Shown here one piece after another: positions 1 through 14,552 of a stretch of 43,703 nt of DNA; the first letter of the stretch is position 1; every line of letters begins with the position of its first letter. Position numbers and translations under genes: made by a program. The notes beneath the pieces were generated by a model. That model saw only the letters and a program-made list of their open reading frames with translations. It had not been told where the DNA came from and did no database searches. The stretch is taken from sequence record DRR723986_5863; one strand, 5' to 3'.

Positions 1-30
1 TCGCGGGTTCGAGCCCCGTCACTCGCGCCA
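1..30 (+). tRNA. 3' end of a tRNA, probably tRNA-Asp(GTC); serves as ICE attachment site (att core). Truncated by window start
   Basis: TCGCGGGTTCGAGCCCCGTCACTCGCGCCA = T-arm with GTTCGA loop, acceptor strand and CCA end; matches the alphaproteobacterial tRNA-Asp 3' end as I recall it; integrase starts 140 bp downstream. Anticodon not visible. Confidence 0.8.
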
Positions 31-116
31 TTTCTTCGGAAATGAAAGCTCCATAACCCCCTGAAATCATTGAACTTATCGGATTAGCGTGATGCCAATC
101 CGGGTTCGACGCCGGT

Positions 117-163
117 GTTTGCACTACAGTTTGCACTACAGTTTGCATACTTTTTGCACTACA
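117..163 (+). repeat. Four tandem 11-12 bp repeats (GTTTGCACTACA), candidate integrase arm-binding sites
   Basis: GTTTGCACTACA 117-128 and 129-140, GTTTGCATAC 141-150, TTTTGCACTACA 152-163, between the tRNA and the integrase ATG. Confidence 0.8.
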
Positions 164-170
164 AATCACG

Positions 171-1550
171 ATGAAGAATACAGGACTTGGAAAAAGATAT
201 CTCAAGGAACGCGGCGGCTGGTGGCACTATCAGCGGCGGGTTCCCTCTCGGTATGTTGACATTGACGACCGTGGTCTGATCCAGATCGCGCTGCGCACCC
301 AATCGATTGAAGTTGCCATGATGCGCCGCGACGGTCTCGCTGAAGCCGACGAAGCAATGTGGAATGCAAAGGCTCTTGAATTGATGGGGCCGAATGGAGA
401 CCGGACGGCTTGGCGGGTTGCAGACCATCGCCACAAGGCGGCTGTCTCACGGGCCATGGCACAGGGCTTTGTTTATCGGCCCGTCGAAGAGATCGCTGCA
501 CTTCCCGATCTAGAAGAGATTGTCGAGCGCCTGAAGGCCACCGACAGAGGCAAAGCGCCAACAGAAGCGAAAGCTGAAGCGCTTCTCGGCGGTGTTCCTG
601 AACCGGTAGATAAGACAACGGTCTCTGAGGCCTTTGAGCTTTATATCTCCAAGATCGCGTTCGACGACCAGTACAACAAATCCGACGCGCAGCGGCGGTC
701 CTGGGAAAAAACCAAGCGCACGTCGATTGACTACTTCATTCAGGAAATCGGCGACATTCCGCTGACGGATATCACACGTGAAATCGCGACGAAATATCGA
801 GACTGGTGGCAGACGCGGATGCTGCCGCAAAAGGACAGCTCAAAGCCTATCACGCCGAACACGGCCAATCGGCATGTCGGCAATATGCGCTCGCTATGCA
901 AACGCTACTTCAAATATCGCGGCGTGACAGATTTCGAGGATCCGTTTCGTGATTTCTTCTTCGCTGGCAAATCAACCGTCAAACGCGCCTCCTTCACGGA
1001 CGACTGGGTGCGCAGTCGCATTCTGGTGCCCGGTCTGTTTGATGGCTTGCGACTTGAGCTGCGGGTCATCATCTATCTTCTGATCGAAACGGGCGCGCGG
1101 CTGAGTGAGGTGGTCAATTTGCGTGCGCAGGATATTCGGCTGGATCATGACGTGCCGCACATCCAGATTCGCGCTGAACAAAACCGTGAATTGAAGACTG
1201 ATGACTCGGAGCGAGAAATCCCGCTTGTTGGTGTCGCCCTTCCGGCAATGCGCCTGTGTCCGACGGGTTTTGATCATTATTATGATCGCAGTACGCTGGT
1301 ATCAGCCAACCTTATGAAAGCCTTCAAACAACGTGATCTCATCCCAAGCCCGGACCATGTCATTTACTCGCTGCGCCACTCATTCGAGGATCGTATGCTC
1401 GAAGGCGGTCTTGATTACGGCCTGCGCTGCGCTTTGATGGGCCACAAGAACAACCGGCCAGAATATGGTCAGGGTGGCTCGCTGGCTTATCGGCGAGATC
1501 AGCTTGAGCGGATCGCGCATCCGTTTGATGCTGCGATGTTTGGGGTGTGA
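171..1550 (+). CDS. Tyrosine integrase of the ICE (DUF6538-like N-terminus)
   Basis: N-terminal YLKERGGWWHYQRRVP; catalytic motifs ETGARLSE, LKT, YSLRH, LMGH, PEYG; adjacent to the tRNA. Confidence 0.92.
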   Translation: MKNTGLGKRYLKERGGWWHYQRRVPSRYVDIDDRGLIQIALRTQSIEVAMMRRDGLAEADEAMWNAKALELMGPNGDRTAWRVADHRHKAAVSRAMAQGFVYRPVEEIAALPDLEEIVERLKATDRGKAPTEAKAEALLGGVPEPVDKTTVSEAFELYISKIAFDDQYNKSDAQRRSWEKTKRTSIDYFIQEIGDIPLTDITREIATKYRDWWQTRMLPQKDSSKPITPNTANRHVGNMRSLCKRYFKYRGVTDFEDPFRDFFFAGKSTVKRASFTDDWVRSRILVPGLFDGLRLELRVIIYLLIETGARLSEVVNLRAQDIRLDHDVPHIQIRAEQNRELKTDDSEREIPLVGVALPAMRLCPTGFDHYYDRSTLVSANLMKAFKQRDLIPSPDHVIYSLRHSFEDRMLEGGLDYGLRCALMGHKNNRPEYGQGGSLAYRRDQLERIAHPFDAAMFGV

Positions 1551-1561
1551 TAACGAAACTC

Positions 1562-1598
1562 CCCCTTTCGACGTCTCTTTTGAGAGGCGTGGAAGGGG
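1562..1598. terminator. Long stem-loop after the integrase, possible terminator
   Basis: CCCCTTTC-G-ACGTCTCT-tttg-AGAGGCGT-GGAAGGGG pairs with two G-T wobbles and one bulge; no U-tract on +. Confidence 0.5.
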
Positions 1599-1822
1599 TA
1601 AAAGAGTGGCCGCGCGCGGGTTCGACAGAGGTGAATATTGTATCCTTTTCAGGGTCTTAGACTTTCAAGAGGGCGATCTGGAAAACGGTCTTGAATACCG
1701 TCTCCGGCCTTATCGAACAGGCCAGCCAGGACCCGGATTTCTGCTTCCCCGTGTGTCCTGAGCGCTTCCCCAGGATGTGCAGTCTTTTGTGTCCTGACGG
1801 GGAAGCATCAGGAGATCGCCTC

Positions 1823-3133
1823 ATGCGCGCCAAACCAAAACTCAAGACATCGCCCGCCCCAAAGCCGGAAGAAGACCGCTTCGAATGGGACAGTTCAGAA
1901 ACGGGTCTCGGAATCCGTCACCGTTCAGACAGGAAACCGGCCTGGTATTTTCAGACGCGGGTCGATGGCAAAACTGTCCGTCGCTCATTGGGGCCTGTAG
2001 AAGACCTTTCCCGCGCAGAAGCCATCTCCAACGCCAATGATCTTCAGGACCAGCTCACCGGCAAGTCGCCTCTGCCAGTCCTCGTTCCGGATGTGCCGAA
2101 AGCCAGTGTCGCCGAGTTCACCGAACGGTTCCTGAGAGATGGTGCCCCCAATTGGAAACCCGCCACCATCACGGCGCACCGATACGTGATTTCCCGCTTC
2201 ATCGTGCCCGCGTTCGGTGCCCGCGATCTTGCCTCCCTGACTGCTGAGGAGGTTGCCACATGGTGGGCGGGGATGGACGCGTCAGCCGGAACCCGCAACC
2301 GCACCCTTGCCGTTCTTTCTGGCATCATTCGGCACGGAGAACTGCTGGGGTTGCGCGCGCCGGGGCTTAACCCCTGCCGGGGGCTCCGGCGACGTAAGTC
2401 CAACTTCCAAGCCCATAGACTGACGAGAGCTGATTATGGACGGCTTGGTGAAGCTCTACAGCATTTCGATCACCAATGGCCGATTGAAACCGCTCTCATT
2501 CGCTTTCTGGCGCTGACAGGCTGCCGCAAGTCCGAAGCCCGCTTTCTGCGCTGGGACATGATCGACGGCAGGCGGGCAGCGCTTCCAGACAGCAAGACCG
2601 GACCCCGTGCGATCTGGCTCGGAACACCGGCAATCAACCTGCTCGCTGCGCGGCCCACGGTCTCAGCGCTTGTGTTCGCCAAGCGCGACAAGCCTGTTTC
2701 AAACAACCAATTGGACAAGATCTGGCACAAGGTCCGTGATCAAGCCGGGTTCGCTAACCTTCGGATGCATGACCTTCGGCACGGGTTTGCATCGGTTGCT
2801 ATCTCATCTGGCGAACCGCTGCGAACCGTGTCCGGCTTGCTCGGACACTCTGACCTGCAGACGACCGCTGGATATGCGCAGTTTGCAGAGGCCCCTGTCA
2901 GAGATGCCGCTAAACGGGTAGCGGCCCATCTTGGAAAGGCGTTGACGGGCAACACAACACAGGCTGCGCCAGCGCCCAAAGGCATGGTCGCCGCATTTCT
3001 GGCTCAAGGGCTCCCCATGGACGCCTTTGCCGACGCTAACGGCATCAGCCTGTCCACGCTTCGCCAGAAGCTCGCGAGGCACTTCAAGGATGTCCGCCTG
3101 TCCCGTGCTGACAGCGAGGGTATCGAGCAATGA
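1823..3133 (+). CDS. Tyrosine recombinase A with Arm-DNA-binding (DUF4102-like) N-terminus
   Basis: AGGAG RBS at 1810-1814 before ATG 1823; WDSSETGLGIR arm domain; LTGCRKSE, DSKTG, HDLRH, LLGH, TAGYA all intact. Confidence 0.9.
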   Translation: MRAKPKLKTSPAPKPEEDRFEWDSSETGLGIRHRSDRKPAWYFQTRVDGKTVRRSLGPVEDLSRAEAISNANDLQDQLTGKSPLPVLVPDVPKASVAEFTERFLRDGAPNWKPATITAHRYVISRFIVPAFGARDLASLTAEEVATWWAGMDASAGTRNRTLAVLSGIIRHGELLGLRAPGLNPCRGLRRRKSNFQAHRLTRADYGRLGEALQHFDHQWPIETALIRFLALTGCRKSEARFLRWDMIDGRRAALPDSKTGPRAIWLGTPAINLLAARPTVSALVFAKRDKPVSNNQLDKIWHKVRDQAGFANLRMHDLRHGFASVAISSGEPLRTVSGLLGHSDLQTTAGYAQFAEAPVRDAAKRVAAHLGKALTGNTTQAAPAPKGMVAAFLAQGLPMDAFADANGISLSTLRQKLARHFKDVRLSRADSEGIEQ

Positions 3134-4314
3134 GCGCGCCGAAGAAGCATCTGACCGACACATTGGCGCGAAAGGCGAAATCCAGAACCCAAGAATACGC
3201 CCTCGCCGACGCCGCCCTGCAAGGGTTCGCGCTTCGCATTCAGCCTTCTGGCGCGAAGACATGGACGCTGAGACTGCGTATTGAGGGAAAAGTTCGCCGA
3301 TTCACGATTGGATCTGCCGAAACGATGAGCGCTGACGAAGCGAGAACGCGCGCGCTGCAGTTGCGCGCTGAGCATCAGCCGAAAACAATCCTGCTGCTCG
3401 CGGCAGCTGACGCGCCTGCCATGACGCTCCGCGAACTCAGCCAATGCCTCCTGCAGGCGAAGGACAGCATTTGGAGGCCGGGCACGATGAGGGCCGTCTC
3501 CACATACCTCAGGGCCGAATTGCTCCCCGCGTTCGGGGACCGTCCGATCAACCGACTGACGACGGCTGAAATTGCCGAATGGTTCCACGCCTACAGCATC
3601 AGGCGACCGGGCGGTGCCAATCAGGCCCTAACGCATCTGCGCACCACCTTGAAGTTTGCAAGGGACACCGGACGTCTGCCGCGCGATGCACCAGACCCGT
3701 CCCGTCCGATCCGCAAGAACACAAGGCGTGCACGCGGGCGGCTCCTCAATGCCGGCCAGCTTGCAAAACTAGGTGCCTGGCTGGAAGCGCCGCAACTGCG
3801 CTGGCTGGATGTCGCCGATGCCATCCATCTGATCCTGCTTACGGGTTGCCGGTCGGGCGAAATCTCACGCTTGCAATGGGCCGAAGTTCTGGAAGATCGT
3901 CTCCGGCTGACGACGGCCAAGACCGGCAGCCGGGACGTGGTCCTGACACCGCCAGCCTTAGCAATCCTTGCGCGGCGGCGCACAGGCGTGCGGTCGTTCT
4001 ATGTGTTCCCTGCCAGCCATGATGCGGGAACACCTATCGGGACATTAGATGTGCCGTGGCGATCCATCCGGGAACACATCGGACTACCCCGTGAAATCCG
4101 CTTGCACGACCTTCGCCACACCTATGCCAGCCAAGCCATCATGACCGGCGAAACACTCAGCATGGCGGGTCAGCTGCTTGGGCACCGAAGACCCCAGACA
4201 ACTGAAATCTATGCCCACCTCGACGCACAGCATCTCGCCGATGCTGCGGACAGAGTCTCCCGATCGATCTCTGAATATCTGGAATCTGGGAGTGGAGCCG
4301 CCGTTCGAATCTGA
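3130..4314 (+). CDS. Tyrosine recombinase B with Arm-DNA-binding (DUF4102-like) N-terminus, translationally coupled to A
   Basis: ATGA overlap at 3130-3133; DAALQGFALRIQPSGAKTW arm domain; LTGCRSGE, TAKTG, HDLRH, LLGH, TEIYA intact. Confidence 0.92.
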   Translation: MSAPKKHLTDTLARKAKSRTQEYALADAALQGFALRIQPSGAKTWTLRLRIEGKVRRFTIGSAETMSADEARTRALQLRAEHQPKTILLLAAADAPAMTLRELSQCLLQAKDSIWRPGTMRAVSTYLRAELLPAFGDRPINRLTTAEIAEWFHAYSIRRPGGANQALTHLRTTLKFARDTGRLPRDAPDPSRPIRKNTRRARGRLLNAGQLAKLGAWLEAPQLRWLDVADAIHLILLTGCRSGEISRLQWAEVLEDRLRLTTAKTGSRDVVLTPPALAILARRRTGVRSFYVFPASHDAGTPIGTLDVPWRSIREHIGLPREIRLHDLRHTYASQAIMTGETLSMAGQLLGHRRPQTTEIYAHLDAQHLADAADRVSRSISEYLESGSGAAVRI

Positions 4315-4379
4315 CCGGGTGGTTGATTAGACTTGACCCAAAATTGCGGGTGCTGGGGTGGCTTATGAACGGCGGCTTT

Positions 4380-4407
4380 ACTTCTGCATTGGGTCAATTG
4401 GAGACAT
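4380..4407. repeat. Putative recombination site A (11-6-11 imperfect palindrome)
   Basis: ACTTCTGCATT-GGGTCA-ATTGGAGACAT; an extra left arm ACGGCGGCTTT abuts it at 4369-4379. Confidence 0.55.
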
Positions 4408-4425
4408 CGCAGACCGGAGTGAAAT

Positions 4426-4995
4426 GTGGGATTGTTCGGGATGCTCACCGAAAACACCTTTCGAGATATTGTGACGTCTGTCCCGGAAAATGCCGAGATA
4501 CTTGCGGTGATGGAACAGTTGAGACTCCCCGATTGCTATCTGACCGCCGGATGTTTGTTTCAGCCGATCTGGAACCGGAAATCCAACCAACCTGATCTTC
4601 AGAACGTCAGGGATTTCGATGTTTTCTACTATGACAGTGACGTATCTTGGGAGGCGGAAAACTGGGTGATAAAGAGCGCAGAAAAACTTCTCGGCCCGCT
4701 GGCGGACCGCGTAGAGATCAGGAATCAAGCACGCGTCCACCTGTGGTATGAACGACGATTTGGAAACCCGATAGCGCCGCTCAAACACTCCCGTGACGGC
4801 ATCGATCAGTTTCTTATCTCATGCACCTGTGTCGGCATCAAAGTGAGCACGCGTGAACTCTATGCGCCATATGGGCTGTCCGAGTTGTCGGATGGCGTGC
4901 TGCGAATGAACCCCGCAAACCCAAAGCCGAAGCTTTTTTTGGAAAAGGCGTTGGACTATCAATCGCGGTGGCCCTGGTTATCTATTCCGCGGTGA
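4426..4995 (+). CDS. Nucleotidyltransferase-family protein (DUF925-like)
   Basis: LPDCYLTAGCLFQPIWN, RDFDVFYYD, VEIRNQARVHLWY, YAPYGL, RWPWL motifs; GGAG before GTG 4426 (alternative ATG 4441). Confidence 0.85.
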   Translation: MGLFGMLTENTFRDIVTSVPENAEILAVMEQLRLPDCYLTAGCLFQPIWNRKSNQPDLQNVRDFDVFYYDSDVSWEAENWVIKSAEKLLGPLADRVEIRNQARVHLWYERRFGNPIAPLKHSRDGIDQFLISCTCVGIKVSTRELYAPYGLSELSDGVLRMNPANPKPKLFLEKALDYQSRWPWLSIPR

Positions 4996-5023
4996 CGTCC
5001 CCTCAGACGCCGGGAGCAGACCA
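4995..5023. repeat. Putative recombination site B0 (11-7-11), overlapping the stop codon of the upstream gene
   Basis: ACGTCCCCTCA-GACGCCG-GGAGCAGACCA. Confidence 0.45.
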
Positions 5024-5030
5024 AGACGCT

Positions 5031-5062
5031 TAGGCTGGATCGGGGGCAAAAGCGGTCGTTAG
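5031..5062. repeat. Putative recombination site B (11-7-11)
   Basis: TAGGCTGGATC-GGGGGCA-AAAGCGGTCGT(TAG); 5047-5062 is a 15/16 inverted match to 12368-12383. Confidence 0.6.
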
Positions 5063-5143
5063 AATTACCTCCAACATCGATCGATTTAGCAGATAGTTCC
5101 CTATTTTTTTGGGCACGTCTGCAAAACGGCAACGGCTTCCCAT

Positions 5144-6349
5144 TTATCCGGTCGATTTCACATCGCGGAACGGCACGTCTTTATCCACGCCGTCGTCTTT
5201 TGGCAGGCCGAGGACGCGTTCCGCAATAATATTCCTTTGGATTTGGTCTGTCCCGCCACCGATAGAGTTCATATAGGCTTTCGCGGCATCGAAATTTGCG
5301 TTCGCCGCATCAGGGGCGTTGGCTCCGTCAAGCAATGCGCGAGGACCAAGAATGTCTGCGGCAATACGTGCTTCGCCGTGCTGTATGCGGGACATGGCCA
5401 GTTTGCCCAGTGACATGAGCGGCGAAGAGCCCGTTTGCATGATCTCTTGCTTTGCGCGTTTATTGTTCAGGGAATTGAGCTGGCGATAGGCAATGGCCGT
5501 CGCTATTTTTTGACGCAAAACTGGATCGGCCTCTTTGTTATGACGCGCGGCCAGTTCAATGAGGAGTGGCTTTTTCGGGCTATTCTGTCGCCCTCTGCGC
5601 TCTGTGCCGCCTTGGGCCATGATCAGGCGCTCATAGGCAATTGCGGTCTGAAATGACTTCCAGCCTTGGCCCGCTTCGCCAATCAAATTGGCGGCGGGCA
5701 CACGTGCCTCGGTAATGAAAACCTCATTGAACTCGGACTCGCCTGTGATCTGATTGATTGGGCGCACATCAACGCCGTCTTGCTTCATGGGGAACAGAAA
5801 AAAGCTGATGCCCTTGTGTTTAGGGACGTCCCAGTCGGTGCGCGCGAGCAGCATGCCATAATCGGCCTCAACCGCGTTTGAGGTCCACACTTTTTGCCCC
5901 GTCACGATATAATCGTCGCCGTCACGTTCAGCGCGGGTGCGGATGCCTGCAAGGTCAGAGCCTGCGCTTGGCTCCGAATAGAGAAGGCAGCAAATAGGCC
6001 CAGACAGCAGGTCTGGTAACATCGCGCGTTTCAGGTCATCAGATCCCAATTTAAATACGGTGATCGCACCCAGATGAAACCGATCACGTCCCCATCCCGG
6101 GGCCTTCACATTGCGAAATGCCTTTTCGATGATGGCCGCTTTTTTGGGCGACAGCCCAAGGCCAAACCAGTCTTGCGGCCATGACGGTGTGGCAAGGCCA
6201 GCATCGCGCACCTCGGTCAACCAAAGGCGCATTTCATTGGGGGAGTTACCCACCGCCTGCATGCGCGCGTCCGTCCAACGTTCTGACAGCCATGCGGTGA
6301 CGGCATCGCTGATCGCTTCGGGGGTGTTGTCAAAAGTGAGCTTGCTCAT
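5144..6349 (-). CDS. Acyl-CoA dehydrogenase (catalytic-type subunit)
   Basis: YSEPSAGSDL, GQKVWTS, EFNEVF, AYER, SIGGGTDQIQRNIIAERVLGLP; start MSKLT overlaps upstream stop (ATGA). Confidence 0.92.
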   Translation of the reverse strand: MSKLTFDNTPEAISDAVTAWLSERWTDARMQAVGNSPNEMRLWLTEVRDAGLATPSWPQDWFGLGLSPKKAAIIEKAFRNVKAPGWGRDRFHLGAITVFKLGSDDLKRAMLPDLLSGPICCLLYSEPSAGSDLAGIRTRAERDGDDYIVTGQKVWTSNAVEADYGMLLARTDWDVPKHKGISFFLFPMKQDGVDVRPINQITGESEFNEVFITEARVPAANLIGEAGQGWKSFQTAIAYERLIMAQGGTERRGRQNSPKKPLLIELAARHNKEADPVLRQKIATAIAYRQLNSLNNKRAKQEIMQTGSSPLMSLGKLAMSRIQHGEARIAADILGPRALLDGANAPDAANANFDAAKAYMNSIGGGTDQIQRNIIAERVLGLPKDDGVDKDVPFRDVKSTG

Positions 6350-7449
6350 GCGGCTGCCTCCCATGTTTGTAGGTAAAGTTCGCGGAATGTGTCGCTGCTG
6401 GCATATAACCATTCGCCCGCGCGGGCGCGGCGCCAGAATAAGTGGGCGTCATGCTCTTTTGTATAGGCAATGCCGCCGTGCATCTGGATGGCCTCGCTTG
6501 AGACGGTGCGAAAGTTGTCAGCGCATGCCAAGGCCGCCAGATAGACGAGCTGGCGCGATTCTGGTTTGTCTGCCGCTAGGGCGAGCGCTGCTTGACGCGA
6601 CACCGTGACCGCTGACTCCGTTTCAACGAGCAGGTCGGCCGCCATATGTTTCAGCGCCTGATAAGACCCAATTTGACGGCCAAACTGATAACGGTCTTTC
6701 AGATACTGAATGGTACGATTGAAAATCTCTTGCGTCGCTCCGGCTTGCTCAGCGGCAAAGCCCGTCAGCGTGAGGTGCAGCGCATGTTCAATTGCGGCAT
6801 CGGACACGCCAGACAGCCGTATTGCAGGCGCACCGGAAAGTGTCACACAGGCAAGCGAGAGGGTTGGGTCGTCCGTTTGCAGGCTGTCGATGGCGGCGTC
6901 ACTTACCGCAACTTCATAGACGCTCACCTCCTCGCCATCACTGGCAGTGATGAGCAGCCTGTCAGCACGGGAGGCATCAAGCGCAAGCCCTGCGACCCCA
7001 TCGAGCCGCCACGTATCGCCCGTGCGCGTGGCGCGAATGTCGGTCGGCGCAAGCCAGTCCTCTGCGGCGTTGCCCCGGACGACGGCATAGACCACCGAGC
7101 CATTCATAATTGCGCTTACCCGCGGGGTGACATAAGCGGTATCTGTGCTCGCCTGTATGAGGCTGGCTGCAAAAACAGCGGTTGAGAGATAAGGCGATGG
7201 CAGGAGCCGCGCGCCCATCACTTCCATGATGGCCTGCAGGTCGGCACTGTCGCCGCCCGCGCCGCCATGTGCCTCGTCCACTAGCAATCCCAACAAGCCG
7301 AGTTCCGCCATTTGCGTCCATAGCGCGCTATCGTACTTAGGCTCTGCCTTAACAGTGTCGCGAAGCGTGTCGGTAGAGGCGACATCGGTTAGCAACCGGT
7401 CTATAACGTCAACCAATGCAAGCCTGTCTTCAACTGTAAGTGCGCTCAT
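6346..7449 (-). CDS. Acyl-CoA dehydrogenase family protein (short partner subunit)
   Basis: LWTQMAELGLLG, RYQFGRQIGSYQALKH, AIQMHGGIAYTKEH; lacks the SEP-GSD motif; GGAG RBS before MSALT. Confidence 0.9.
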   Translation of the reverse strand: MSALTVEDRLALVDVIDRLLTDVASTDTLRDTVKAEPKYDSALWTQMAELGLLGLLVDEAHGGAGGDSADLQAIMEVMGARLLPSPYLSTAVFAASLIQASTDTAYVTPRVSAIMNGSVVYAVVRGNAAEDWLAPTDIRATRTGDTWRLDGVAGLALDASRADRLLITASDGEEVSVYEVAVSDAAIDSLQTDDPTLSLACVTLSGAPAIRLSGVSDAAIEHALHLTLTGFAAEQAGATQEIFNRTIQYLKDRYQFGRQIGSYQALKHMAADLLVETESAVTVSRQAALALAADKPESRQLVYLAALACADNFRTVSSEAIQMHGGIAYTKEHDAHLFWRRARAGEWLYASSDTFRELYLQTWEAAA

Positions 7450-7481
7450 ACCTGCATCATCTCCATCGCGAAATTTAAAAC

Positions 7482-7524
7482 TCGAACATATGTTCAACTT
7501 GCATTAAGTTGAACAATGGTTCAA
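7482..7524. promoter_or_regulatory. Two palindromic operators TYGAAC-N4-GTTCAA in the divergent ACAD/TetR promoter
   Basis: TCGAACATATGTTCAA 7482-7497 and TTGAACAATGGTTCAA 7509-7524; same motif recurs at 12263-12278. Confidence 0.75.
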
Positions 7525-7572
7525 TTTTGATGTCAAGTATTGCGGATCCCTTCCGTCGCGAGGTGTATCAGG

Positions 7573-8208
7573 ATGACAAACACGCAGGCAGCCGCCAACA
7601 CAAGGCGGCAACCCGTACAGGAGCGCGCCGTGAAACGCCGCGCACGCATTGTTGAGGGCGCGATGGAGGTCATCGCAACTGACGGCATTGATGCCCTAAA
7701 TATGCGCGATATTGCGAAAGCCGCCGGCGTTGGCATTGGCACACTATACGACTATTTTCCAAGCCGGTCGGATTTGATCTGCCATGTCACTGATGATTGG
7801 CTGACACGAAAACTTGCAGTGTTTGACGCGACGATTGCGACCGTATCGAAAGACGACAAATTCCGGAACTTTATCGTGCGATACCGCAAGGCTATGCAGG
7901 ATGCTGGGTTTGGAACGCCCTTTGATACAGAGATCAGCCGCGCCGCCGCCAATGACAAAAAGGTCGCGGCCATCATTGATGATTATAGGTCAGAGGCCAT
8001 CGAGCGATACACGCAAGTCCTACAGCACGCGGGATCAACCTGGACCAAGCGCCAATTGCGGCCCATCTCGCGGTTCCTCTTGCAGCTGTCAGAACAAGTT
8101 GAACCCGCCACGGGGTTTGAAGGGACGGCCGAGGACCGCGTCATTGTTGGTGAGCTGATCGCGCAAACAATTGTCAGCACATTAAAACGGACTCTGCAGC
8201 CGCGTTGA
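7573..8208 (+). CDS. TetR/AcrR-family regulator
   Basis: RQPVQERA...LNMRDIAKAAGVGIGTLYDYFPSR HTH. Confidence 0.92.
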   Translation: MTNTQAAANTRRQPVQERAVKRRARIVEGAMEVIATDGIDALNMRDIAKAAGVGIGTLYDYFPSRSDLICHVTDDWLTRKLAVFDATIATVSKDDKFRNFIVRYRKAMQDAGFGTPFDTEISRAAANDKKVAAIIDDYRSEAIERYTQVLQHAGSTWTKRQLRPISRFLLQLSEQVEPATGFEGTAEDRVIVGELIAQTIVSTLKRTLQPR

Positions 8209-8244
8209 GATGACACGCACTGATGGGCATAGAGGGAGCTAAAA

Positions 8245-9513
8245 ATGACATACGGATGGACACTGGCCTGCGGCGTGGCCGCATTGGCGCTGTGCGGGTG
8301 CGCAGGCGAGCCGCAGACAGACGCAGCGACGCAAACAGCAACGACGGCTGCTGCGGTCGACGCACGCTATACACTTGGCGATGGCGGGGTGTCGGACTTC
8401 TATGCATTTGAAGAGGCGATCCCTGCAACGCCGGGCATGCTGCTACGACAGGAACCATTGACGGCAGAGCAATCTGTACCTGGGGCGGCGCGGAATATTC
8501 GGCTGCTCTATACATCGACAGATGGCTTGAATGGGGGCGAACCTATTGTTGTGTCTGGTGGCCTGTTCATCCCGCCCGGTGAGGCCCCCGCAGGCGGTTG
8601 GCCGCTTCTGCTATGGTCACACGGCACAGTCGGGATTGCCGATAAATGTGCGCCGAGTTGGACAGGTTATGTGCCGTTTCATGATGAGCATTTGCAGACA
8701 TGGCTGGACAATGGATATGCCATTGTCGCGTCTGATTATCAGGGGCTGGGCACCGAAGGGACGCACCCCTATCTCGCCACCCGCCCCGCAGCGTTCAGCA
8801 ATCTTGACGTCATACGCGCCGTACAGGCCGCCGACTTCAACCTGACCGATGCCGTTGTGATCGCAGGACAATCCCAAGGCGCAGGCGCAGCGTTCGCGAC
8901 CGCTGGCCATGCCGCAGATTACGCGCCAGATATTGATATCAGAGGCGTCGTCGCAACCGGCATTCCATACTTTACGCCAGAAGCCCTGATCGCTGTGCAA
9001 GAAGCCCGCCCGAATGATGTGGTTGACCCCATGCTAGGATACAACTTCCTCGCGCTGTCCATGATCTCGCTGGTGGAGCCCGACTTTAGTATCGAGGACT
9101 ATGTCTCTGACGCAGCCCTGCCGATGGCGCGCGGCGTTGCTGACATTTGTAACCGCGATATGCGCACTAAAATCGAGGAGGCGGGTTTGACCTATAACAT
9201 GTCCTTCAAACAAAGCCCTGCGGAGCAATTGAAAAAGGCGTTTGCAAAAATGCAATATCCGACGCTGGACCTGCCTGTGCCTGTCTTTGTTGGGACAGGG
9301 TCGACAGACCGCGATACGCCGCCGCGCATGCAAGCCGGATTGGCAAAACGTGCCTGCGCGGCTGGCACCACTATTGAAGCGCGGTTTTATGACGGCTTTG
9401 ACCATCTGACCGTCTTGAACCATTCCCAAATGGACTCGCTGCCCTTTGTGGCGAAGGCCTTTGCAGGCGATGATATTGCGGGAAACTGCGCAGATCTTCC
9501 CTACGATAAGTAG
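8245..9513 (+). CDS. Secreted lipase (LIP family, alpha/beta hydrolase), probable lipoprotein
   Basis: Lipoprotein-type signal LCGC, HGTVG, DYQGLG, nucleophile GQSQG, GSTDRD, DH. Confidence 0.88.
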   Translation: MTYGWTLACGVAALALCGCAGEPQTDAATQTATTAAAVDARYTLGDGGVSDFYAFEEAIPATPGMLLRQEPLTAEQSVPGAARNIRLLYTSTDGLNGGEPIVVSGGLFIPPGEAPAGGWPLLLWSHGTVGIADKCAPSWTGYVPFHDEHLQTWLDNGYAIVASDYQGLGTEGTHPYLATRPAAFSNLDVIRAVQAADFNLTDAVVIAGQSQGAGAAFATAGHAADYAPDIDIRGVVATGIPYFTPEALIAVQEARPNDVVDPMLGYNFLALSMISLVEPDFSIEDYVSDAALPMARGVADICNRDMRTKIEEAGLTYNMSFKQSPAEQLKKAFAKMQYPTLDLPVPVFVGTGSTDRDTPPRMQAGLAKRACAAGTTIEARFYDGFDHLTVLNHSQMDSLPFVAKAFAGDDIAGNCADLPYDK

Positions 9514-9537
9514 GCGGATCCATCTCACCTCGAAACC

Positions 9538-9572
9538 AAAAAAAATGGGCGGCCCTATGACAGGGCCGCCCA
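9538..9572 (-). terminator. Intrinsic terminator between the convergent lipase and TonB receptor genes
   Basis: TGGGCGGCCCT-atgac-AGGGCCGCCCA 9546-9572 with an A8 run at 9538-9545 (U-tract on minus). Confidence 0.85.
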
Positions 9573-9598
9573 GTTAGAAACGAAGGAAGAGGTTCGTT

Positions 9599-12175
9599 CT
9601 AGAATTTCGTCCTCAAGGTCACGCCGTACGTGGCGGGGTCTTGCACGAACTGCGCACGCGCGCGGTTGCCGGCACTGCCGCGCAACGAAACGTTAAACGT
9701 CACGCCCTTGGTGCGCTCGTCCGTGACATTATTGCCCCACAGTTCCACAGCCCAGCGCTCATCAATCGTGGCCAGCCCGACCCGCAGATTGACCTTGGTG
9801 TGAGCCTCTTGAATGTCGCCTGGCAATAGCAGGGATGGGTTGGAGACTTCGACCGCCTGCGTTGAGGTTCTGCGGTCACTCTCATAACGGGCCGATGCCG
9901 TGGCAAAGAAGTTTGCATTACCATTGAAGACGGGCGTCTCATAGGTGCCGCCACCGATAATGGCCCAGTCAGGCGCATTGGTCAGTTTCTGGCCGCACAG
10001 GGTTGAGGCATTTCTGATAAAGTCAGGATCAGTTGCATCCTGCGTCGCGCAATCATCGGGATAGCGCGCATCAGTATATGTCACGCCGACATTACCACTG
10101 AAGGCGTCCGTGAATTGCATCTGGCTTTCCACCTCGATGCCCGTGCTGATCGCTTTGTCGACATTGAACGTCTGAAACTGGACACCTGTAAATTCAAGTA
10201 CCTGAAAGTCTTCAAATTCCTGATGGAACGCTGCAATGTTGAGCGTTGCCCGTCCATCAAGCAAGGTCGATTTCAAGCCAATTTCAAACGCATCAACTTT
10301 TTCTGAGTCAAAGCGCGGGTCAGCGCCCGCCCCTGCCGCAGACGCATCAAGGTTGAAGCCACCTGATTTAAAGCCGTGCGTAAAGCCGCCATAAATATTG
10401 ACGTCTGGTGATAATTCATAGCCAGCTTTCAGCGTATAGATCAGCTCCTCATCTTCAAATGTATCGCTGAACTCCTGAGGCAACAGGCCGAGCAGGGCGG
10501 CGGCCGGTGATTGCGCAATGGCCCCGAATAGTGGGCCAGGATTGGCGGGATCAAATACGGGCGCAGTAAACACAAAACAGTTAAGCGCCACGGCATTTCC
10601 GGTCAAACTGGCCGGTATACCGCCAAGGTTTTGGAATGTGCCAAGACAGGCATTGTGCTGCCCTGCGACCTGATCAAAGCTGCCATCCTTGGTTTCTTCG
10701 ACATAACGAAGGCCGAGGGTCACATTGAACTGGTCGGTGACGCTAAACACATTGTGCGTAAAAACAGAGATGGATTGCGCCGACTGTGCAAACTCATTCG
10801 TTGCAAAGTCACCCTCTGCGGACGCGCCGCCCGCAAAGCTGAGCAGCAGATTGTTTGGGCTGCCGAACAGGCCAGCGCTGAGCCCGCGCTGATAGTCACC
10901 CAGCAGCGTCACAGTGGCCCGCGACCCAATCTCTTCGTCCGAATAGTAGAAGCCAACCAGCCAATCGAGCCGGTCATCAAACGCTGTATTCTGCAGGCGC
11001 AGTTCGTGGGATTGGGTCTCAACATCGATGCCATTTTCAGGCGCGGTGCTGCCCACGGCGCGTACCTCTGGCGTGATGCCTGTTGCGAAAATATCCAGGC
11101 CGACAAAGTCATTATCGCGTCCAGATTGCGCGCTGTAATCGCGGTATGCGCCAATGTAAGTCAGGTCGCCAAATGGTAGTTCGTTCTCATAGGCCAGCGA
11201 GATGCCCCACTGTTCAAACGGGTTCCGGAAGGACGTACCATTGCCCTTATAGTCATCCAGTGCGGCATCACCGACATTCGGCGCGCCGCCGCCCGCGCCA
11301 AGCGGTGTCGCCGCGAAGACAGCGCGCTGCGCAGCATCTTGCAACCAGACGGCATCGCAGCATTCATCCTTGCCCTCAGCATAGTCAGCGATCAGGCGGA
11401 ACTGGCCATTGTCAGCAAGGTCCAGCAGGGCCTGTCCGCGCAGGGTCAAACGGTCACGCGTATTGGTGTCCTGACCATCAAACTTCTCGACAAGGCCGCT
11501 ACGGTCGCGCGTTGCGCCAGACAGGCGGACGGCAAACTTATCTTCCACAATCGGGATGTTCACACCGGCCTGCAGGTTGACCAGATCATAGTTGCCAACG
11601 GTCAGGTTTCCGAACCCGCTAAACTCATCAAGATCAGGCTTCTTTGTTTGGATGCTCAACGCGCCCGATGATGTGTTGCGCCCAAAAAGGGTGCCTTGTG
11701 GACCGCGCAAAACTTCGATCTGCTCTACGTCCAGCAAATCGGCCAACGCAATGCCGGGCCGCGAGAGGTATTCCCCATCGAGAAAAACGCCCACCGCGCT
11801 TTCAAGACCGATATTATTACCCGTGGTACCAACGCCGCGCACACGCAACACGGTGCCGCCGGACTCAGAATCAGACGATGTCATGCTGAAGCTTGAGGCG
11901 ACAGAATCGAGCGTTCTGATGTCTGCAACGCCTGCACGTTCGAGTGTCTTGGCATCAACGGCCGTCACCGCAATTGGCACATCTTGTATCGTTGCGCCCT
12001 CACGCCGTGTGGCTGTCACTTGAATGGTATTGAGACGTCGTGCTTCGGCCTCAGGGGCCGCAGGTGCTGCGGTTTCGCCTGTTTGCTCTTGAGCGGTCGC
12101 CGCCATTGGCAAGGTCAGTGCGACGAGTGATGCCGTGGCTAAAAGCCCGCCGAATCTCCGTGTTGATGTGGTCAT
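9599..12175 (-). CDS. TonB-dependent outer-membrane receptor
   Basis: Signal peptide, TIQVTATRR TonB box, IEVLRGPQGTLFGRN plug motif, C-terminal TYGVTLRTKF. Confidence 0.95.
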   Translation of the reverse strand: MTTSTRRFGGLLATASLVALTLPMAATAQEQTGETAAPAAPEAEARRLNTIQVTATRREGATIQDVPIAVTAVDAKTLERAGVADIRTLDSVASSFSMTSSDSESGGTVLRVRGVGTTGNNIGLESAVGVFLDGEYLSRPGIALADLLDVEQIEVLRGPQGTLFGRNTSSGALSIQTKKPDLDEFSGFGNLTVGNYDLVNLQAGVNIPIVEDKFAVRLSGATRDRSGLVEKFDGQDTNTRDRLTLRGQALLDLADNGQFRLIADYAEGKDECCDAVWLQDAAQRAVFAATPLGAGGGAPNVGDAALDDYKGNGTSFRNPFEQWGISLAYENELPFGDLTYIGAYRDYSAQSGRDNDFVGLDIFATGITPEVRAVGSTAPENGIDVETQSHELRLQNTAFDDRLDWLVGFYYSDEEIGSRATVTLLGDYQRGLSAGLFGSPNNLLLSFAGGASAEGDFATNEFAQSAQSISVFTHNVFSVTDQFNVTLGLRYVEETKDGSFDQVAGQHNACLGTFQNLGGIPASLTGNAVALNCFVFTAPVFDPANPGPLFGAIAQSPAAALLGLLPQEFSDTFEDEELIYTLKAGYELSPDVNIYGGFTHGFKSGGFNLDASAAGAGADPRFDSEKVDAFEIGLKSTLLDGRATLNIAAFHQEFEDFQVLEFTGVQFQTFNVDKAISTGIEVESQMQFTDAFSGNVGVTYTDARYPDDCATQDATDPDFIRNASTLCGQKLTNAPDWAIIGGGTYETPVFNGNANFFATASARYESDRRTSTQAVEVSNPSLLLPGDIQEAHTKVNLRVGLATIDERWAVELWGNNVTDERTKGVTFNVSLRGSAGNRARAQFVQDPATYGVTLRTKF

Positions 12176-12262
12176 GTCTATCTTCCTCCCAGATCGGCTT
12201 TGCGCCGCTTTTGTATCATTCCGCCTCGCGCGCTGACGTAACGTGCGTTCGACCTATAAGAC

Positions 12263-12278
12263 TTGAACAACTGTTCGA
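12263..12278. promoter_or_regulatory. Third TetR-type operator, upstream of the TonB receptor
   Basis: TTGAACAACTGTTCGA; partial copy ending GTTCGA at 12237-12252. Confidence 0.7.
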
Positions 12279-12367
12279 GTTTCTGTCAAGACATTGGAAT
12301 CGGCCCTGCGCGATCAGCGTCGTCATCATCCCGCAGAGTTGGACTATCGACTGTCATACTAATGGGG

Positions 12368-12398
12368 CTAACGTCCGCTTTTGGGATTTTGGAGCCTT
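12368..12398. repeat. Putative recombination site C (11-6-11)
   Basis: (CTA)ACGTCCGCTTT-TGGGAT-TTTGGAGCCTT; left arm is complementary to site B right arm; right arm resembles site A right arm (TTGGAG.C). Confidence 0.6.
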
Positions 12399-12640
12399 CA
12401 GCGTTGGCTCGTATGCGGATCGCATTTACGCAGAAGATTGAATGCCAACCCAACTACTTGATCATCATGCAAATCGACGACATTGTGACCATGGGCCGCT
12501 CGGTCCGAGTTCAAGCTGGCGCAAAGTCAAAAGCCGGTCGCATCTGAGAGCATTGGTTTTGCTCGAAAATTATGGCGGCCAGTCTTGGAGTTTCGGTATC
12601 TTCCTTCACCGCCAGGTGAGTGGGGTGTGATACCCGATAC

Positions 12641-12722
12641 AACAGTCTATAGGTTGTAACTTCGTATAGAAAAACAAATTATAGATTGTTAAATAAATTC
12701 ATGCTAACAAGCTATGAATTGT
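12641..12722. promoter_or_regulatory. Three 17-bp operator-like repeats upstream of mobile mystery protein A
   Basis: AACAGTCTATAGGTTGT 12641-12657, AACAAATTATAGATTGT 12673-12689, AACAAGCTATGAATTGT 12706-12722. Confidence 0.65.
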
Positions 12723-12742
12723 AAAATGGATTGGGTCTACTT

Positions 12743-13201
12743 ATGGACAGGTCTCTCAAACGTGCCCGTGCGGCGCTCGATAAACGCGTAAACGTGCTGA
12801 GGCAAATGGATCAGGTATCTGCGCCTCCGAAGGGATGGGTGCGGGCGATTCGGGACGCTATTGGCATGTCGGGTGTGCAATTGGCTGGTCGCATGGGGGT
12901 ATCGCAGCAGGCGATCAACGCTCTGGAGCAATCCGAGGCGAACGAAACCATTCGCCTTGAGACACTGCGTAAGGCTGCTGCCGCACTCGATTGTCAGTTG
13001 GTCTATGCGCTTGTGCCCAATAAGCCGCTTGAAGAGATGGTGGCGACGCGTGCGCGTGCCAAAGCGCTAGAGGCGCTTGGCGGGATTTCCCATTCCATGG
13101 CGATGGAGGACCAAAAAGTTCTGAACGATGACCTCGAAGAGCGAATTGCAATTTTCATCGCCGAGACCTTGCGGGACCGTGATTTGTGGGAGCCTTCGTG
13201 A
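12743..13201 (+). CDS. Mobile mystery protein A (Xre-family HTH)
   Basis: PPKGWVRAIRDAIGMSGVQLAGRMGVSQQ..LEQSE, LDCQLVYALVP, HSMAMEDQ; start may be TTG 12731. Confidence 0.9.
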   Translation: MDRSLKRARAALDKRVNVLRQMDQVSAPPKGWVRAIRDAIGMSGVQLAGRMGVSQQAINALEQSEANETIRLETLRKAAAALDCQLVYALVPNKPLEEMVATRARAKALEALGGISHSMAMEDQKVLNDDLEERIAIFIAETLRDRDLWEPS

Positions 13202-13978: not shown

Positions 13979-13987
13979 GGGAAGTCA

Positions 13988-14296: not shown

Positions 14297-14299
14297 GGG

Positions 14300-14536: not shown

Positions 14537-14552
14537 TGGATTTGCTCCTGTT

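Follow-up and report, generated by a model that had tools for sequence, protein, structure and literature searches.

Two overlapping, diverged tyrosine recombinase genes form the recombinase module of an 11-kb integrative element nested in an ICE

Arm-binding tyrosine integrases are by textbook account a single-protein type, in which one Int acts together with small accessory proteins. The P4/CP4-57-type integrases are encoded by a single gene, usually accompanied by a separate small excisionase and often situated at tRNA genes. They have an arm-binding N-domain, a core-binding domain and a catalytic domain in that order, and their elements are islands with arms and a short core repeat. XerC and XerD are two paralogous tyrosine recombinases with full catalytic sets but without an arm-binding N-domain, and they are in chromosomal service under the control of FtsK.

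Further arrangements of tyrosine recombinase genes are described in the parts of the literature cited here. In RIT elements the tyrosine recombinase genes are adjacent and overlapping, and such genes are common in Alpha- and Betaproteobacteria (PMC3414803). RIT elements have three recombinases of a simple (Xer-like) architecture with special insertions, plus terminal inverted repeats of 34 bp (PMC8138268), RitA having two core-binding domains and RitC an extra helix (PMC8138268, PMC10214605). Tn554, known from Staphylococcus and Enterococcus, inserts site-specifically and needs both of its tyrosine recombinases for movement: an ordinary TnpA and a large TnpB (over 600 aa) are accompanied by a small TnpC, and the ends are imperfect terminal inverted repeats with a 6-bp footprint (PMC10214605, PMC3414803). 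The SE (intA-tfp-intB-srap; strand-biased circularizing integrative elements) and the GInts (ginABCD), both hosted by Gamma- and Betaproteobacteria, are built on a core of four genes, one of them for a recombinase-like protein that lacks RHRY (Tfp/GinC) and another for a small auxiliary protein (Srap/GinD) (PMC10214605). The bipartite module, BIM, consists of one recombinase and a conserved non-recombinase SMC-domain protein (PMC3414803). On ICEPmu1 and ICEMh1 of Pasteurellaceae, a XerCD-like pair is presumed to act jointly at attL and attR (PMC6861422). In the parts of the literature consulted we found no description of integrase pairs like the one reported below, and the family lists of PMC3414803, PMC8138268 and PMC10214605 might carry members under other names.

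The analysed window, that is, the whole stretch of 43,703 nucleotides from sequence record DRR723986_5863, includes three tyrosine recombinase genes in its first 4.3 kb, all on the + strand (Table 1). This count, given already in an earlier note made from the sequence alone, was borne out by the ORF list and by Pfam, in which Int1, A and B alike matched Phage_integrase. The earlier note had regarded A and B as additional to the ICE integrase. Int1 is indeed the ICE integrase; A and B, however, are part of a distinct element that is nested in the ICE and has its own att sites. Int1 and B are barely related (22% identity over 138 aa, E 0.003).

Table 1. Coordinates of the recombinase genes, the integrative element and the adjoining ICE features in the window.
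Feature	Position	Strand	Description
tRNA gene 3' end	1..28	+	Sequence ending ...GGTTCGAGCCCCGTCACTCGCGCCA; attachment side of surrounding ICE, outside A/B element
int1, ICE tyrosine integrase	171..1550	+	459 aa; DUF6538 + SAM_5 + Phage_integrase (Pfam)
Integrative element	1541..12630	+	11,090 bp including both core copies; left arm, A, B, cargo, right arm
Left core repeat TGGGGTGTGATA (attL crossover region)	1541..1552	+	Direct repeat; homology with L006 starts here
Left arm	1541..1822	+	282 bp of conserved non-coding DNA 5' of A
Gene A, arm-type tyrosine recombinase	1823..3133 (ORF open from 1691)	+	436 aa from ATG at 1823
A C-terminal tail	2948..3130	+	Residues 376-436; three predicted helices, HTH-like look
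Gene B, arm-type tyrosine recombinase	3130..4314	+	394 aa; start overlaps A stop
Cargo region	4426..12175	both strands	Pfam; nothing common with L006 element
Cargo: NTP_transf_6 protein	4426-4995	+	Pfam
Cargo: acyl-CoA dehydrogenase-like gene 1	5144-6412	-	Pfam
Cargo: acyl-CoA dehydrogenase-like gene 2	6346-7497	-	Pfam
Cargo: TetR regulator	7540-8208	+	Pfam
Cargo: lipase/hydrolase	8245-9513	+	Pfam
Cargo: TonB-dependent receptor	9599-12175	-	Pfam
Right arm	12473..12630	+	158 bp conserved with L006 element
Right core repeat TGGGGTGTGATA (attR crossover region)	12621..12632	+	Direct repeat; X2/X7 contigs diverge after 12630

ARAGORN found no whole tRNA gene in the window. In the nearest genome, G001, the sequence G001:C4 aligns with window positions 1-44 at 93%, and ARAGORN identified there a tRNA-Asp(GTC). 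The same genome has Int1-like genes at 50% and 67% identity, one of which adjoins the same tRNA; the 67% identical gene ends two codons earlier than int1. The ICE backbone is common to the window and G001 from 13998 onward only, and G001 is without the A/B region.

A was taken to start at the ATG at 1823, since that is where most homologues start, with AGGAG 9 nt upstream. Its stop shares the ATGA at 3130-3133 with the start of B, in agreement with the overlap that the earlier note had reported, and the two proteins are clearly diverged, as had also been claimed (31% identity over 359 aa, E 3e-39). Their Phage_integrase scores were 67.8 and 57.6 bits for A and B, respectively (cut-off 27.1). 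Both keep all R-K-H-R-H-Y residues in identical alignment columns, again as first noted: R235, K258, H316, R319, H342 and Y351 in A, and R241, K264, H326, R329, H352 and Y361 in B. The closest solved sequence match of the catalytic end of A was XerD, the active-site motifs of which align with it, while the XerC/XerD equivalogs TIGR02224 and TIGR02225 scored 37-53 bits here, with cut-offs of 330-335.

The arm-type N-terminus proposed for both proteins stood for B, and for A probably. Against Arm-DNA-bind_3 (PF13356, cut-off 27), B scored 46.9 bits and its N-terminus matches the solved N-domains 3ju0 and 3jtz of CP4-like integrases, so by sequence B has an arm-binding N-domain of the P4/CP4 kind. 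A scored 22.0 bits, under the cut-off, but its structure model shows residues 19-79 as a beta-sheet with a helix, precomputed PF13356 is present in several A homologues, and A probably has the domain as well. The C-terminal tail of A, earlier given as about 55 aa with an HTH-like look, came out as approximately 52 extra residues, A having 85 and B 33 residues beyond the catalytic tyrosine. Its helices were modelled at residues 387-395, 399-406 and 410-432 (10-residue pLDDT means 77-89). The tail could be aligned in 17 homologues, down to 39% identity, and among the 33 A-type proteins sampled it is confined to the subclade of the window, L006 and L007. An HTH character is plausible from the model; the Pfam HTH matches were sub-threshold only, the best being Xre-like-HTH with E 0.023.

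The element is flanked by the direct repeat TGGGGTGTGA(TA) and inserted at the stop codon of int1, the left core repeat containing this stop and the last two int1 codons. The 11-mer GGGGTGTGATA has exactly two copies in the window, on the same strand and beginning at 1542 (1542-1552) and 12622, and a T preceding each copy makes the repeat 12 nt long. Just inside the left core lies CGAAACTCC (1554-1562), the inverted partner of which, GGAGTTTCG, is found in the right arm at 12587-12595. In the k-mer analysis the left arm showed, at about 1743-1806, two TGTGTCCTGA repeats with the inverted repeats GCTTCCCC / GGGGAAGC; judged by their sequence, these are candidate arm-type or operator sites. The 9-bp inverted repeat flanking the core and the two TGTGTCCTGA repeats are kept in a second element, that of the L006 genome. 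Between the window and L006 the mean column identity was 89% over a 400-nt aligned stretch including the left arm and 78% over the whole module, and approximately 100 nt 5' of the ATG of A are almost invariant. The layout of the left-arm repeats is retained also in L007, pTAV1 and Leisingera, the A proteins of which are 43-49% identical.

In run X2, one contig of 11,104 nt corresponded to positions 1541-12621 with 0 differences, with a depth of 22.7 on the element contig versus 1.2-8.9 beside it. The contigs of X2 and X7 have foreign sequence before 1541 (...CAGCAC(C/G)GAAGGTGCA) and after 12630 (ACACCCT...), and in X7, which is labelled as a single organism, the depth was zero over the ICE flanks (bins 1-1461 and 12663-14600). 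In X4 and X5, contigs run on beyond 12630 into the flank that the window itself has there. Two copies of the same core, 20.3 kb apart, border an element of 20,288 bp in the L006 genome. The parts common to it and the window element are only the left 2,710 bp (77.7%), comprising the arm, A and B, and the right 158 bp, the identity of the right arm being 82.4% over 159 nt with the homology ending exactly at the core; the cargo between them is different. The second core copy of L006 was missed by a 13-mer including TAC and found by a pattern without those bases. The element has moved recently as one unit. Bounded by att repeats at either end and found in different contexts, it is a discrete integrative element, or genomic island, and the A/B pair is the recombinase module of this nested island, not a set of spare ICE integrases.

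Of exactly this element, the runs gave no direct view of either a circular junction or an empty site. One joint in X2 goes back from 12630 to 1734, on a diverged contig of low depth that has unknown letters in between, and contig ends in X5 suggest an empty site there. The metagenome scan for the int1 end with the core gave two matches, both on unrelated contigs. In L013, a 16-nt direct repeat ending in GGGTGTGA, with copies 3.7 kb apart, encloses the pair and one further gene. When 27 other type-1 modules were searched for direct repeats of at least 10 nt from the left border to 6 kb downstream, the L013 repeat was the only convincing one; the 10-12-nt matches in a few other modules were outside the border motif. 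In pTAV1 a second copy of the 16-nt left site was absent within 2 mismatches.

Loci for the comparison with relatives were chosen by likeness to A or B, many of them from metagenome bins, and in the search for B in 301 genomes at most six candidates per genome were scored; neither sample is a census. The tree of 118 relatives placed the B-type proteins in one clade (SH-aLRT 95, and 93 with outgroups), comprising 33 downstream members and the downstream member of one pair outside the gap rule, and their upstream partners formed A-type clades with matching internal groupings. The A-type and B-type clade was separate from the single-gene relatives (SH-aLRT 91). The nearest of the latter (22 S-type rows) are lone integrases of the ordinary kind with the same fold, so that the fold itself needs no partner. 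The distance matrices of the A-type and B-type proteins were correlated with a Mantel r of 0.95, and 0 of 2000 permutations reached as high a value. The gene order was A then B in every pair, partners were never swapped, and 29 of the 33 type-1 pairs had a 4-nt overlap (26 ATGA and 3 GTGA). Median identity was 39% among A-type and 36% among B-type proteins, and 36% within pairs versus 35% to non-partners, which indicates that the duplication is old and that there has been no gene conversion.

The earlier note had asked whether the two genes always co-occur, and the outcome was favourable in both the mirrored trees and the gene neighbourhoods. An intact B-type gene lacking an A-type gene upstream was not encountered among the loci examined, and in a sample picked by B likeness, an A-type gene was situated just upstream of all 7 of the 7 intact B-type genes. 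A-type genes without B numbered three: a full-length gene in L108, a lone duplicate in L047 and a plasmid copy in Leisingera methylohalidivorans, which is followed by an RHS gene. The A-type protein may then work, or at least persist, alone. The modules sampled were mostly alphaproteobacterial, and an annotated intact pair with the 4-nt overlap was present on four complete plasmids, pTAV1 and those of Tritonibacter, L. thetidis and L. caerulea. In diverged modules, DNA homology starts at a constant distance upstream of A, which is 124-139, 203-204, 251-275 or 282 bp depending on the clade, in comparisons above about 74% identity, and it stops at or just before the stop of B in most comparisons. 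The genes after B differ among the window, L006, pTAV1 and the other plasmids. Integrase pairs of this kind are, by these sequence comparisons, an old and widespread design.

These results leave very little room for A and B being chance neighbours, left behind by two unrelated elements integrated successively beside the ICE integrase. ICEs with two or more integrases have been reported and sometimes ascribed to composites (PMC5587801, in the part cited), and a third, unrelated integrase, Int1, adjoins the pair in the window. However, 33 diverged pairs repeat the order A then B, their trees mirror each other and the 4-nt overlap is conserved. The 2.7-kb module has been kept as a single block, and the overlapping genes leave no att-like site between A and B.

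The six catalytic residues were invariant in the 18 A and 20 B relatives compared with the window proteins, and likewise in all 33 A-type proteins and all 33 B-type proteins of the paired sample. This bears on a reading which we consider improbable, namely that only one protein is a working recombinase and the other an architectural or directionality helper on the arm sites, a built-in Xis substitute with its catalytic residues unused. Such a helper would suit the extra helical tail of A, the arm-binding N-domains of both proteins (that of A by model) and the excisionase search, in which no such gene common to the window and L006 elements was found. Unused residues would, however, be expected to drift, as in Tfp and GinC, described as lacking RHRY in the cited part of PMC10214605, and the catalytic invariance at median identities of 39% and 36% argues against an unused active site in either protein.

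Our preferred reading, to which we give a probability of roughly 60%, is that A and B are co-expressed catalytic subunits of one recombination system that moves the 11.09-kb island. Joint action of the two is well supported by the sequence comparisons. A physical A-B heteromer would be a further step, since linked genes may co-diverge without their products touching; the predicted complex of A and B, made with two alignments, scored 0.37 versus 0.24 for the control, a result that speaks neither for nor against contact.

A rival reading is a division of labour without a mixed complex, in which A and B would be separate homomeric recombinases acting with different bias on the same or neighbouring sites, one for instance mainly integrating and the other mainly excising or resolving multimers. 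FimB and FimE at fimS, two separate recombinases differing in bias, provide a model for this. The full catalytic sets of both proteins would agree with it, as would the single-gene relatives of the same fold, the few lone A-type genes and the occurrence of pairs also on plasmids, where a role in resolution is conceivable. Still, we regard it as unlikely: the 4-nt overlap, kept by all but four of the 33 pairs, fixes a near-equal co-translation that opposed independent enzymes would not need, the gene order is constant with no swapping of partners (Mantel r 0.95), and an intact B-type gene was never alone among the loci examined.

In the single recombination system that we favour, A and B would be old paralogues within the arm-binding (P4/CP4-like) integrase class, translated at about 1:1 from one message through the ATGA overlap. 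The system would integrate and excise the non-conjugative island at 1541-12630, which, sitting at the int1 stop codon inside a Trb-type ICE, would travel with the ICE. Strand exchange would take place at the core TGGGGTGTGA, where both arms (282 bp on the left and 158 bp on the right) end. A mixed A/B tetramer may assemble on the asymmetric core, each kind of subunit cutting one strand pair in the fashion of XerC/XerD, with the N-terminal domains of both proteins possibly binding the arm repeats. The helical tail of A might add a DNA-binding or control function that elsewhere belongs to a separate small protein. We infer that both proteins are required, contact each other and bind these sites.

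The likeness to XerC/XerD drawn in the earlier note applies to two active paralogues that are encoded together and would act jointly on one asymmetric core, but not to the domain make-up, which in A and B is of the arm type, nor to the role. The mobile island that carries A and B has long arms and a core repeat of 10 bp, and the two proteins are not members of the XerC/XerD group. The domain order of A and B and the arms and short core repeat of their island are those of the P4/CP4-57 type, from which they differ in being two diverged copies in one translationally coupled operon. The ICEPmu1/ICEMh1 pair is, by its published description, similar in consisting of two tyrosine recombinase genes on an ICE, but it is the ICE's own integrase, at tRNA-Leu, and XerC/XerD-like (PMC6861422, in the part cited).

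A and B were set apart from RIT, Tn554, SE and GInt by the published descriptions of those groups. The earlier note had stated that the layout fits neither RIT nor Tn554, and this held: the features that define them in the cited part of PMC10214605, like those defining SE and GInt, were not found in the A/B element. Compared with RIT there are two related genes only, Int1 being unrelated and outside the element, and the ends are direct repeats. Compared with the description of Tn554, A has 436 aa and B 394 aa, both with arm domains (in A a probable one), there is no TnpC-like partner and the ends are again direct repeats. SE and GInt are similar to the A/B element in being non-conjugative, in having an overlapping recombinase operon at the left end by attL and in riding conjugative elements (PMC10214605, in the part cited), but against their description the A/B module has two genes only, with none between them and no conserved gene after B. 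BIM was ruled out, A and B both being recombinases.

That the pair would be a diverged member of one of these named groups (RIT, Tn554-like, SE or GInt) is accordingly most improbable. The groups resemble it in having two or three tyrosine recombinases per operon, overlapping reading frames and site-specificity (PMC10214605, in the part cited). Against this, the A/B module has no third recombinase-like gene and no conserved small Srap/GinD/TnpC-like gene after B, neither A nor B is a large recombinase, and the ends are direct repeats with long arms instead of 13-34-bp terminal inverted repeats. The arm-binding N-domains of A and B also set them apart from RitA-C and TnpA, which the cited part of PMC8138268 presents as simple recombinases with other insertions.

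A bolder version of the preferred reading is offered tentatively, as we hold it less probable than not. A and B would be the first arm-type (lambda/P4-class) integrases working as an obligate A2B2 heterotetramer, the paralogues each cleaving one strand pair of an asymmetric core in which GGTGTG comes after a short, hairpin-like inverted repeat. The helical tail of A would stand in for a separate excisionase or targeting factor, and tail-bearing elements would be specialised to parasitise conjugative DNA, inserting next to a relaxase or integrase gene of an ICE or plasmid and thereby getting carried along. If this were true, the elements would form a sixth group beside the five tyrosine-recombinase transposon groups listed in 2023.

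A large, old clade of two coupled, diverged copies with full catalytic sets suggests an alternative solution to integration: a two-subunit enzyme that, like XerC/XerD but on mobile DNA, would have asymmetry and perhaps also directionality built in. Annotation pipelines label A and B each as 'site-specific integrase', and an island finder would take the pair for two elements or for a composite. The left arm, the core motif and the right arm, all of them conserved, offer a way to delimit such islands. Their cargo is varied: the window element carries a set for lipid/TonB uptake, that of L006 a defence-like SMODS/SLATT pair and that of L013 a single gene. Since the islands sit in conjugative elements, they would provide a route for shuffling cargo among the ICEs and plasmids of marine Alphaproteobacteria. 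Also for genome engineering, paired orthogonal integrases with short cores could be of interest.

In the region upstream of A, the RNA fold of 1735-1830 had a z of -2.45, with 3 of 200 shuffles equally good, and the consensus fold of five homologous leaders was weak (-8.3 kcal/mol, double changes in 6 of 17 pairs). These values fit either an RNA hairpin or a DNA site. No Rfam family was found in window positions 1-5000 at E up to 1. The scan of 1400-4600 gave 0 sigma-70-like promoters; the one terminator-like site lies on the minus strand within B, with no excess over shuffles.

The core repeat of the elements is short, 10-12 nt. The target of the window copy, the int1 end, does not resemble the one in L006, X2 and X7, so that this copy may occupy a secondary site. 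In the fetched flanks, tRNA genes were present at 5 of the 60 loci scanned, the nearest approximately 0.3 kb from an integrase gene.

In the first 4.3 kb of the window, the three tyrosine recombinases reported in the earlier note were recovered as int1, A and B, all on the plus strand, with A and B overlapping by a shared ATGA. The proteins A and B are clearly diverged (31% identity over 359 residues), and each has the full catalytic set, its six residues aligning column for column with those of the other. An arm-type N-terminus was detected in B (Pfam, 46.9 bits; PDB matches 3ju0 and 3jtz) and is probable in A, which scores under the Pfam cut-off (22.0 bits) and whose structural model has the same beta-sheet and helix. 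The catalytic tyrosine is followed by 85 residues in A and 33 in B. The extra tail of A is alignable in homologues down to 39% identity and was predicted, with fair confidence, to form three helices; the HTH-like character earlier ascribed to it came down to a sub-threshold Pfam likeness. Ahead of the ATG the frame of A remains open over 44 codons (1691-1822), and gene callers have extended some homologues through it (P0003 and P0008; 487-488 aa). The conserved "peptide" of this stretch, DPDFCFPVCPERFP.MCSLLCPDGEASG, is more likely a translated conserved DNA site than a real protein.

Features of the window, with their positions and, where given, strand
Feature	Position	Strand
tRNA gene, 3' end	1-28	
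Likely arm-type sites of Int1 (direct repeats)	120-163	
int1, tyrosine recombinase	171-1550	+
Integrative element	1541-12630	
Leader before A	1743-1813	
Gene A, tyrosine recombinase	1823-3133	+
Gene B, tyrosine recombinase	3130-4314	+
HTH_3 gene and Fic-domain gene	12731-13785	
TrbI, CagX/TrbG, VirB8/TrbF, TrbL, TrbE, VirB3, VirB11-like ATPase	14.5-23.6 kb	

A relative was encoded in 558 of the 600 candidate stretches, and the best 80 loci were kept by likeness to A. Most of these 80 hold two recombinase genes in tandem, and not the mainly single homologues that would have spoken against a pair. A tree of 118 proteins (46 upstream, 46 downstream and 26 single; near-identical copies L010 and L018 and rows short of full length left out) contained two kinds of pair, type 1 (n = 33, including the window) and type 2 (n = 13). 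The type-1 downstream proteins formed one clade (SH-aLRT 95), and the upstream proteins formed clades with the same internal groupings as their partners. Type 2, sister to 21 single integrases, arose independently of type 1 and is more loosely spaced (-13 to +55 nt, with the 4-nt overlap in 5 of 13; L030, L033, L055, L059, L063, L067-L069, L071, L080, L081, L085 and L101), while 29 of the 33 type-1 pairs have the 4-nt overlap and the rest lie at -14, +3, +3 and +3. When three integrases of G001, the genome nearest to the window, were added as an outgroup whose rows are long and not monophyletic, the A-type and B-type proteins grouped together (SH-aLRT 91), with the singles and type 2 outside their clade.

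Comparison of the A-A with the B-B distance matrix gave a strong correlation (r 0.95; 0 of 2000 permutations as high), and the phylogeny and neighbourhood check proposed earlier came out in favor of the pair. Proteins were as similar to their partners (36% identity) as to non-partners (35%), which indicates an old duplication with no partner swapping or homogenisation. The partnership is old and faithful, the two genes forming one operon of strict order with coupled translation and two intact active sites; a chance accretion of neighbouring integrases is very hard to credit. The six catalytic residues were invariant in 118 of 118 proteins, and a catalytically idle helper as one of the pair is improbable. 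In comparisons of diverged modules above about 74% identity, the distance upstream of A at which DNA likeness begins is fixed and clade-specific, and the likeness mostly stops at or just before the B stop. At one locus (L009 1-11409; also L010) two type-1 pairs face apart between 3,578-bp inverted repeats, 99.97% identical, that start within the 3' ends of both B genes; the arrangement resembles a segment that can invert or has recombined. A third copy is present in the same genome (L011).

From the side of B, the 20 best places of a search of 301 genomes, with at most six candidates scored per genome, included seven intact pairs of A-type and B-type genes (one of them a second copy truncated where its contig ends), a pair with broken B, a B with only the A tail upstream, two N-terminally truncated B genes without A, one full-length A alone, one type-2 pair and seven single S-type integrases. 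Some alphaproteobacterial genomes showed many copies, with 62-86 first-look candidates (G301, G156, G192 and G007; loci L089-L095). Five pair loci of G301, one of them a copy truncated at a contig end, and one truncated B were among the 20 places fetched; that copy apart, the loci are 67-79% identical to each other, and the copy number is reminiscent of insertion-sequence-like expansion.

The 78%-identical relative L006 aligns to the window only at 1541-4250, a stretch that starts 282 bp before A and extends to the end of B. The left edge of this homology is TGGGGTGTGATA, overlapping the int1 stop codon, and the second and last copy of GGGGTGTGATA in the window lies at 12622 on the same strand, preceded by T as is the left copy. 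A single contig of 11,104 nt in the public sequencing run X2 covers 1541-12621 with 0 differences, at a depth of 22.7 compared to 1.2-8.9 over neighbouring ICE sequence. Contigs of X2 and X7 depart into different DNA exactly before 1541 and after 12630, and in X7, labelled as a single organism, the ICE flanks are without cover. The window's own right junction was found in the runs X4 and X5. In the L006 genome, a second core copy lies 20.3 kb downstream, and the 158 bp before it are 82% identical to window positions 12473-12630, the likeness ending exactly at the core. Beyond the left stretch and this 158-bp right arm the two elements (11,090 bp in the window, 20,288 bp in L006) have nothing in common. 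At L013, a 16-nt direct repeat ending in GGGTGTGA, its copies 3.7 kb apart, encloses one pair and one further gene and is a third, minimal example. The contig borders, the L006 core and arm match and L013 together identify a discrete integrative element nested in the ICE, opened by A and B, with a defined core, conserved arms and variable cargo, that has recently moved as a unit. In L006 the cargo begins directly after B with a defence-like pair, a SMODS nucleotidyltransferase and a SLATT_4 effector (8858-10352).

In the inferred attP the core is flanked by a 9-bp inverted repeat (12587-12595 and 1554-1562), which L006 retains. In the left arm two TGTGTCCTGA repeats lie between GCTTCCCC and GGGGAAGC, a layout that persists in relatives with A proteins 43-49% identical. 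Across clades, GGTGTG is preceded in the border motif by a short inverted repeat (CACC-N4-GGTG, GCACC-N3-GGTGC or GCAGC-N4-GCTGC), the orientation of the motif relative to A being reversed in some clades. The leader before A is almost invariant, running GCTTCCCC, TGTGTCCTGA, GCTTCCCC, TGTGTCCTGA, then GGGGAAGC and an AGGAG ribosome site. In its RNA fold (z -2.45) a GUCCUGA repeat is paired with the ribosome site. The leader may serve as an autoregulatory operator, as arm sites or as a translational hairpin.

Of the heteromer working like XerC/XerD suggested in the earlier note, co-function of A and B is strongly supported and the heteromer itself is a proposal. Both proteins would be needed and would form a mixed tetramer splitting the two strand exchanges in the XerC/XerD manner, their arm domains would recognise the arm repeats, and the tail of A would add a DNA-binding or control function, a role suggested by the lack of an excisionase gene common to the window and L006 elements. 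The probability of this proposal as a whole is put at about 60%. FimB and FimE are separate homomeric enzymes with different bias, and the main rival is that A and B would likewise be two such enzymes. The few A-type genes standing alone and the nearest single-gene relatives, which manage without a partner, speak for separate enzymes, a reading considered unlikely here; the remaining alternatives are less likely still.

A 2023 paper (PMC10214605) sorts tyrosine-recombinase transposons into five groups, namely ICE/IME, SE, GInt, RIT and Tn554. As in SE, GInt and Tn554, several recombinases stand in one left-end operon. However, by the published descriptions as far as available, A and B lack the defining features of these three: there is no Tfp/GinC-like gene, no Srap/GinD/TnpC-like gene and no large recombinase, the terminal repeats are direct instead of inverted, and the recombinases are arm-type instead of simple. 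The earlier judgement that the layout is neither RIT nor Tn554 holds on the same features, and membership of an already named multi-recombinase group is most improbable. BIM elements are described as one recombinase with an SMC-like protein (PMC3414803, available part). Pasteurellaceae ICEs are said to use an "XerCD-like pair", presumed and not tested in the portion available (PMC6861422); by this description the pair may resemble A and B. A text search of the 2021 classification paper (PMC8138268) brought up no mention of tandem or paired complex recombinases. No description of the family was found in literature on paired, tandem or heteromeric tyrosine recombinases, where it may be listed in supplementary tables under another name. 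A and B are the two-gene recombinase module of an 11-kb island representing an old, widespread clade of paired arm-type integrases.

Of the 31 complete-plasmid records with a match at E up to 1e-40, seven were examined. Intact pairs with the 4-nt overlap were present in pTAV1 of Paracoccus versutus and in plasmids of Tritonibacter scottomollicae, Leisingera thetidis and L. caerulea; both genes are broken in the Leisingera sp. M527 plasmid, and in that of L. methylohalidivorans an A-like gene is followed by an RHS gene. The Photobacterium damselae plasmid pWMD-P3-1 has a different layout (L113 617-4087), one operon of three overlapping genes for a 373-aa integrase (31% identical to A), a 499-aa "integrase" and a 289-aa "replication initiation protein". 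In the Tritonibacter (L114) and L. thetidis (L115) plasmids the pair directly follows a MobF relaxase gene and a small ORF, and in L006 it follows a T4CP gene and a TrwC-type relaxase gene (2675-5719). Three unrelated records thus have a tail-bearing pair directly behind MOBF/TrwC-type relaxase genes, and the left flank of the X2 and X7 contigs (...CAGCAC(C/G)GAAGGTGCA) is that of L006, which together suggest that sites next to relaxase genes in conjugative DNA are preferred as targets.

Outside the recombinase region the window is a Trb-type conjugative element, also with a metal-efflux block, ArdC, ParB, a TraF-like S26 peptidase and a relaxase with DUF3363. It shares with G001 the ICE backbone from 13998 on, Int1-like genes and the tRNA end, while 1541-13997 has no counterpart in that genome. 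ARAGORN found no whole tRNA in the window; in G001 the tRNA is tRNA-Asp(GTC) and is adjoined by an Int1-like gene (50% identity), which bears out the earlier assignment of Int1 as the ICE integrase. A repeat of about 12 nt (GTTTGCACTACA and variants) occurs in three direct copies between the tRNA end and int1. Immediately beyond the island's right end, ahead of the conserved backbone, the HTH_3 and Fic-domain genes overlap each other; in L006, too, a Fic gene is close to the pair, on the other side.
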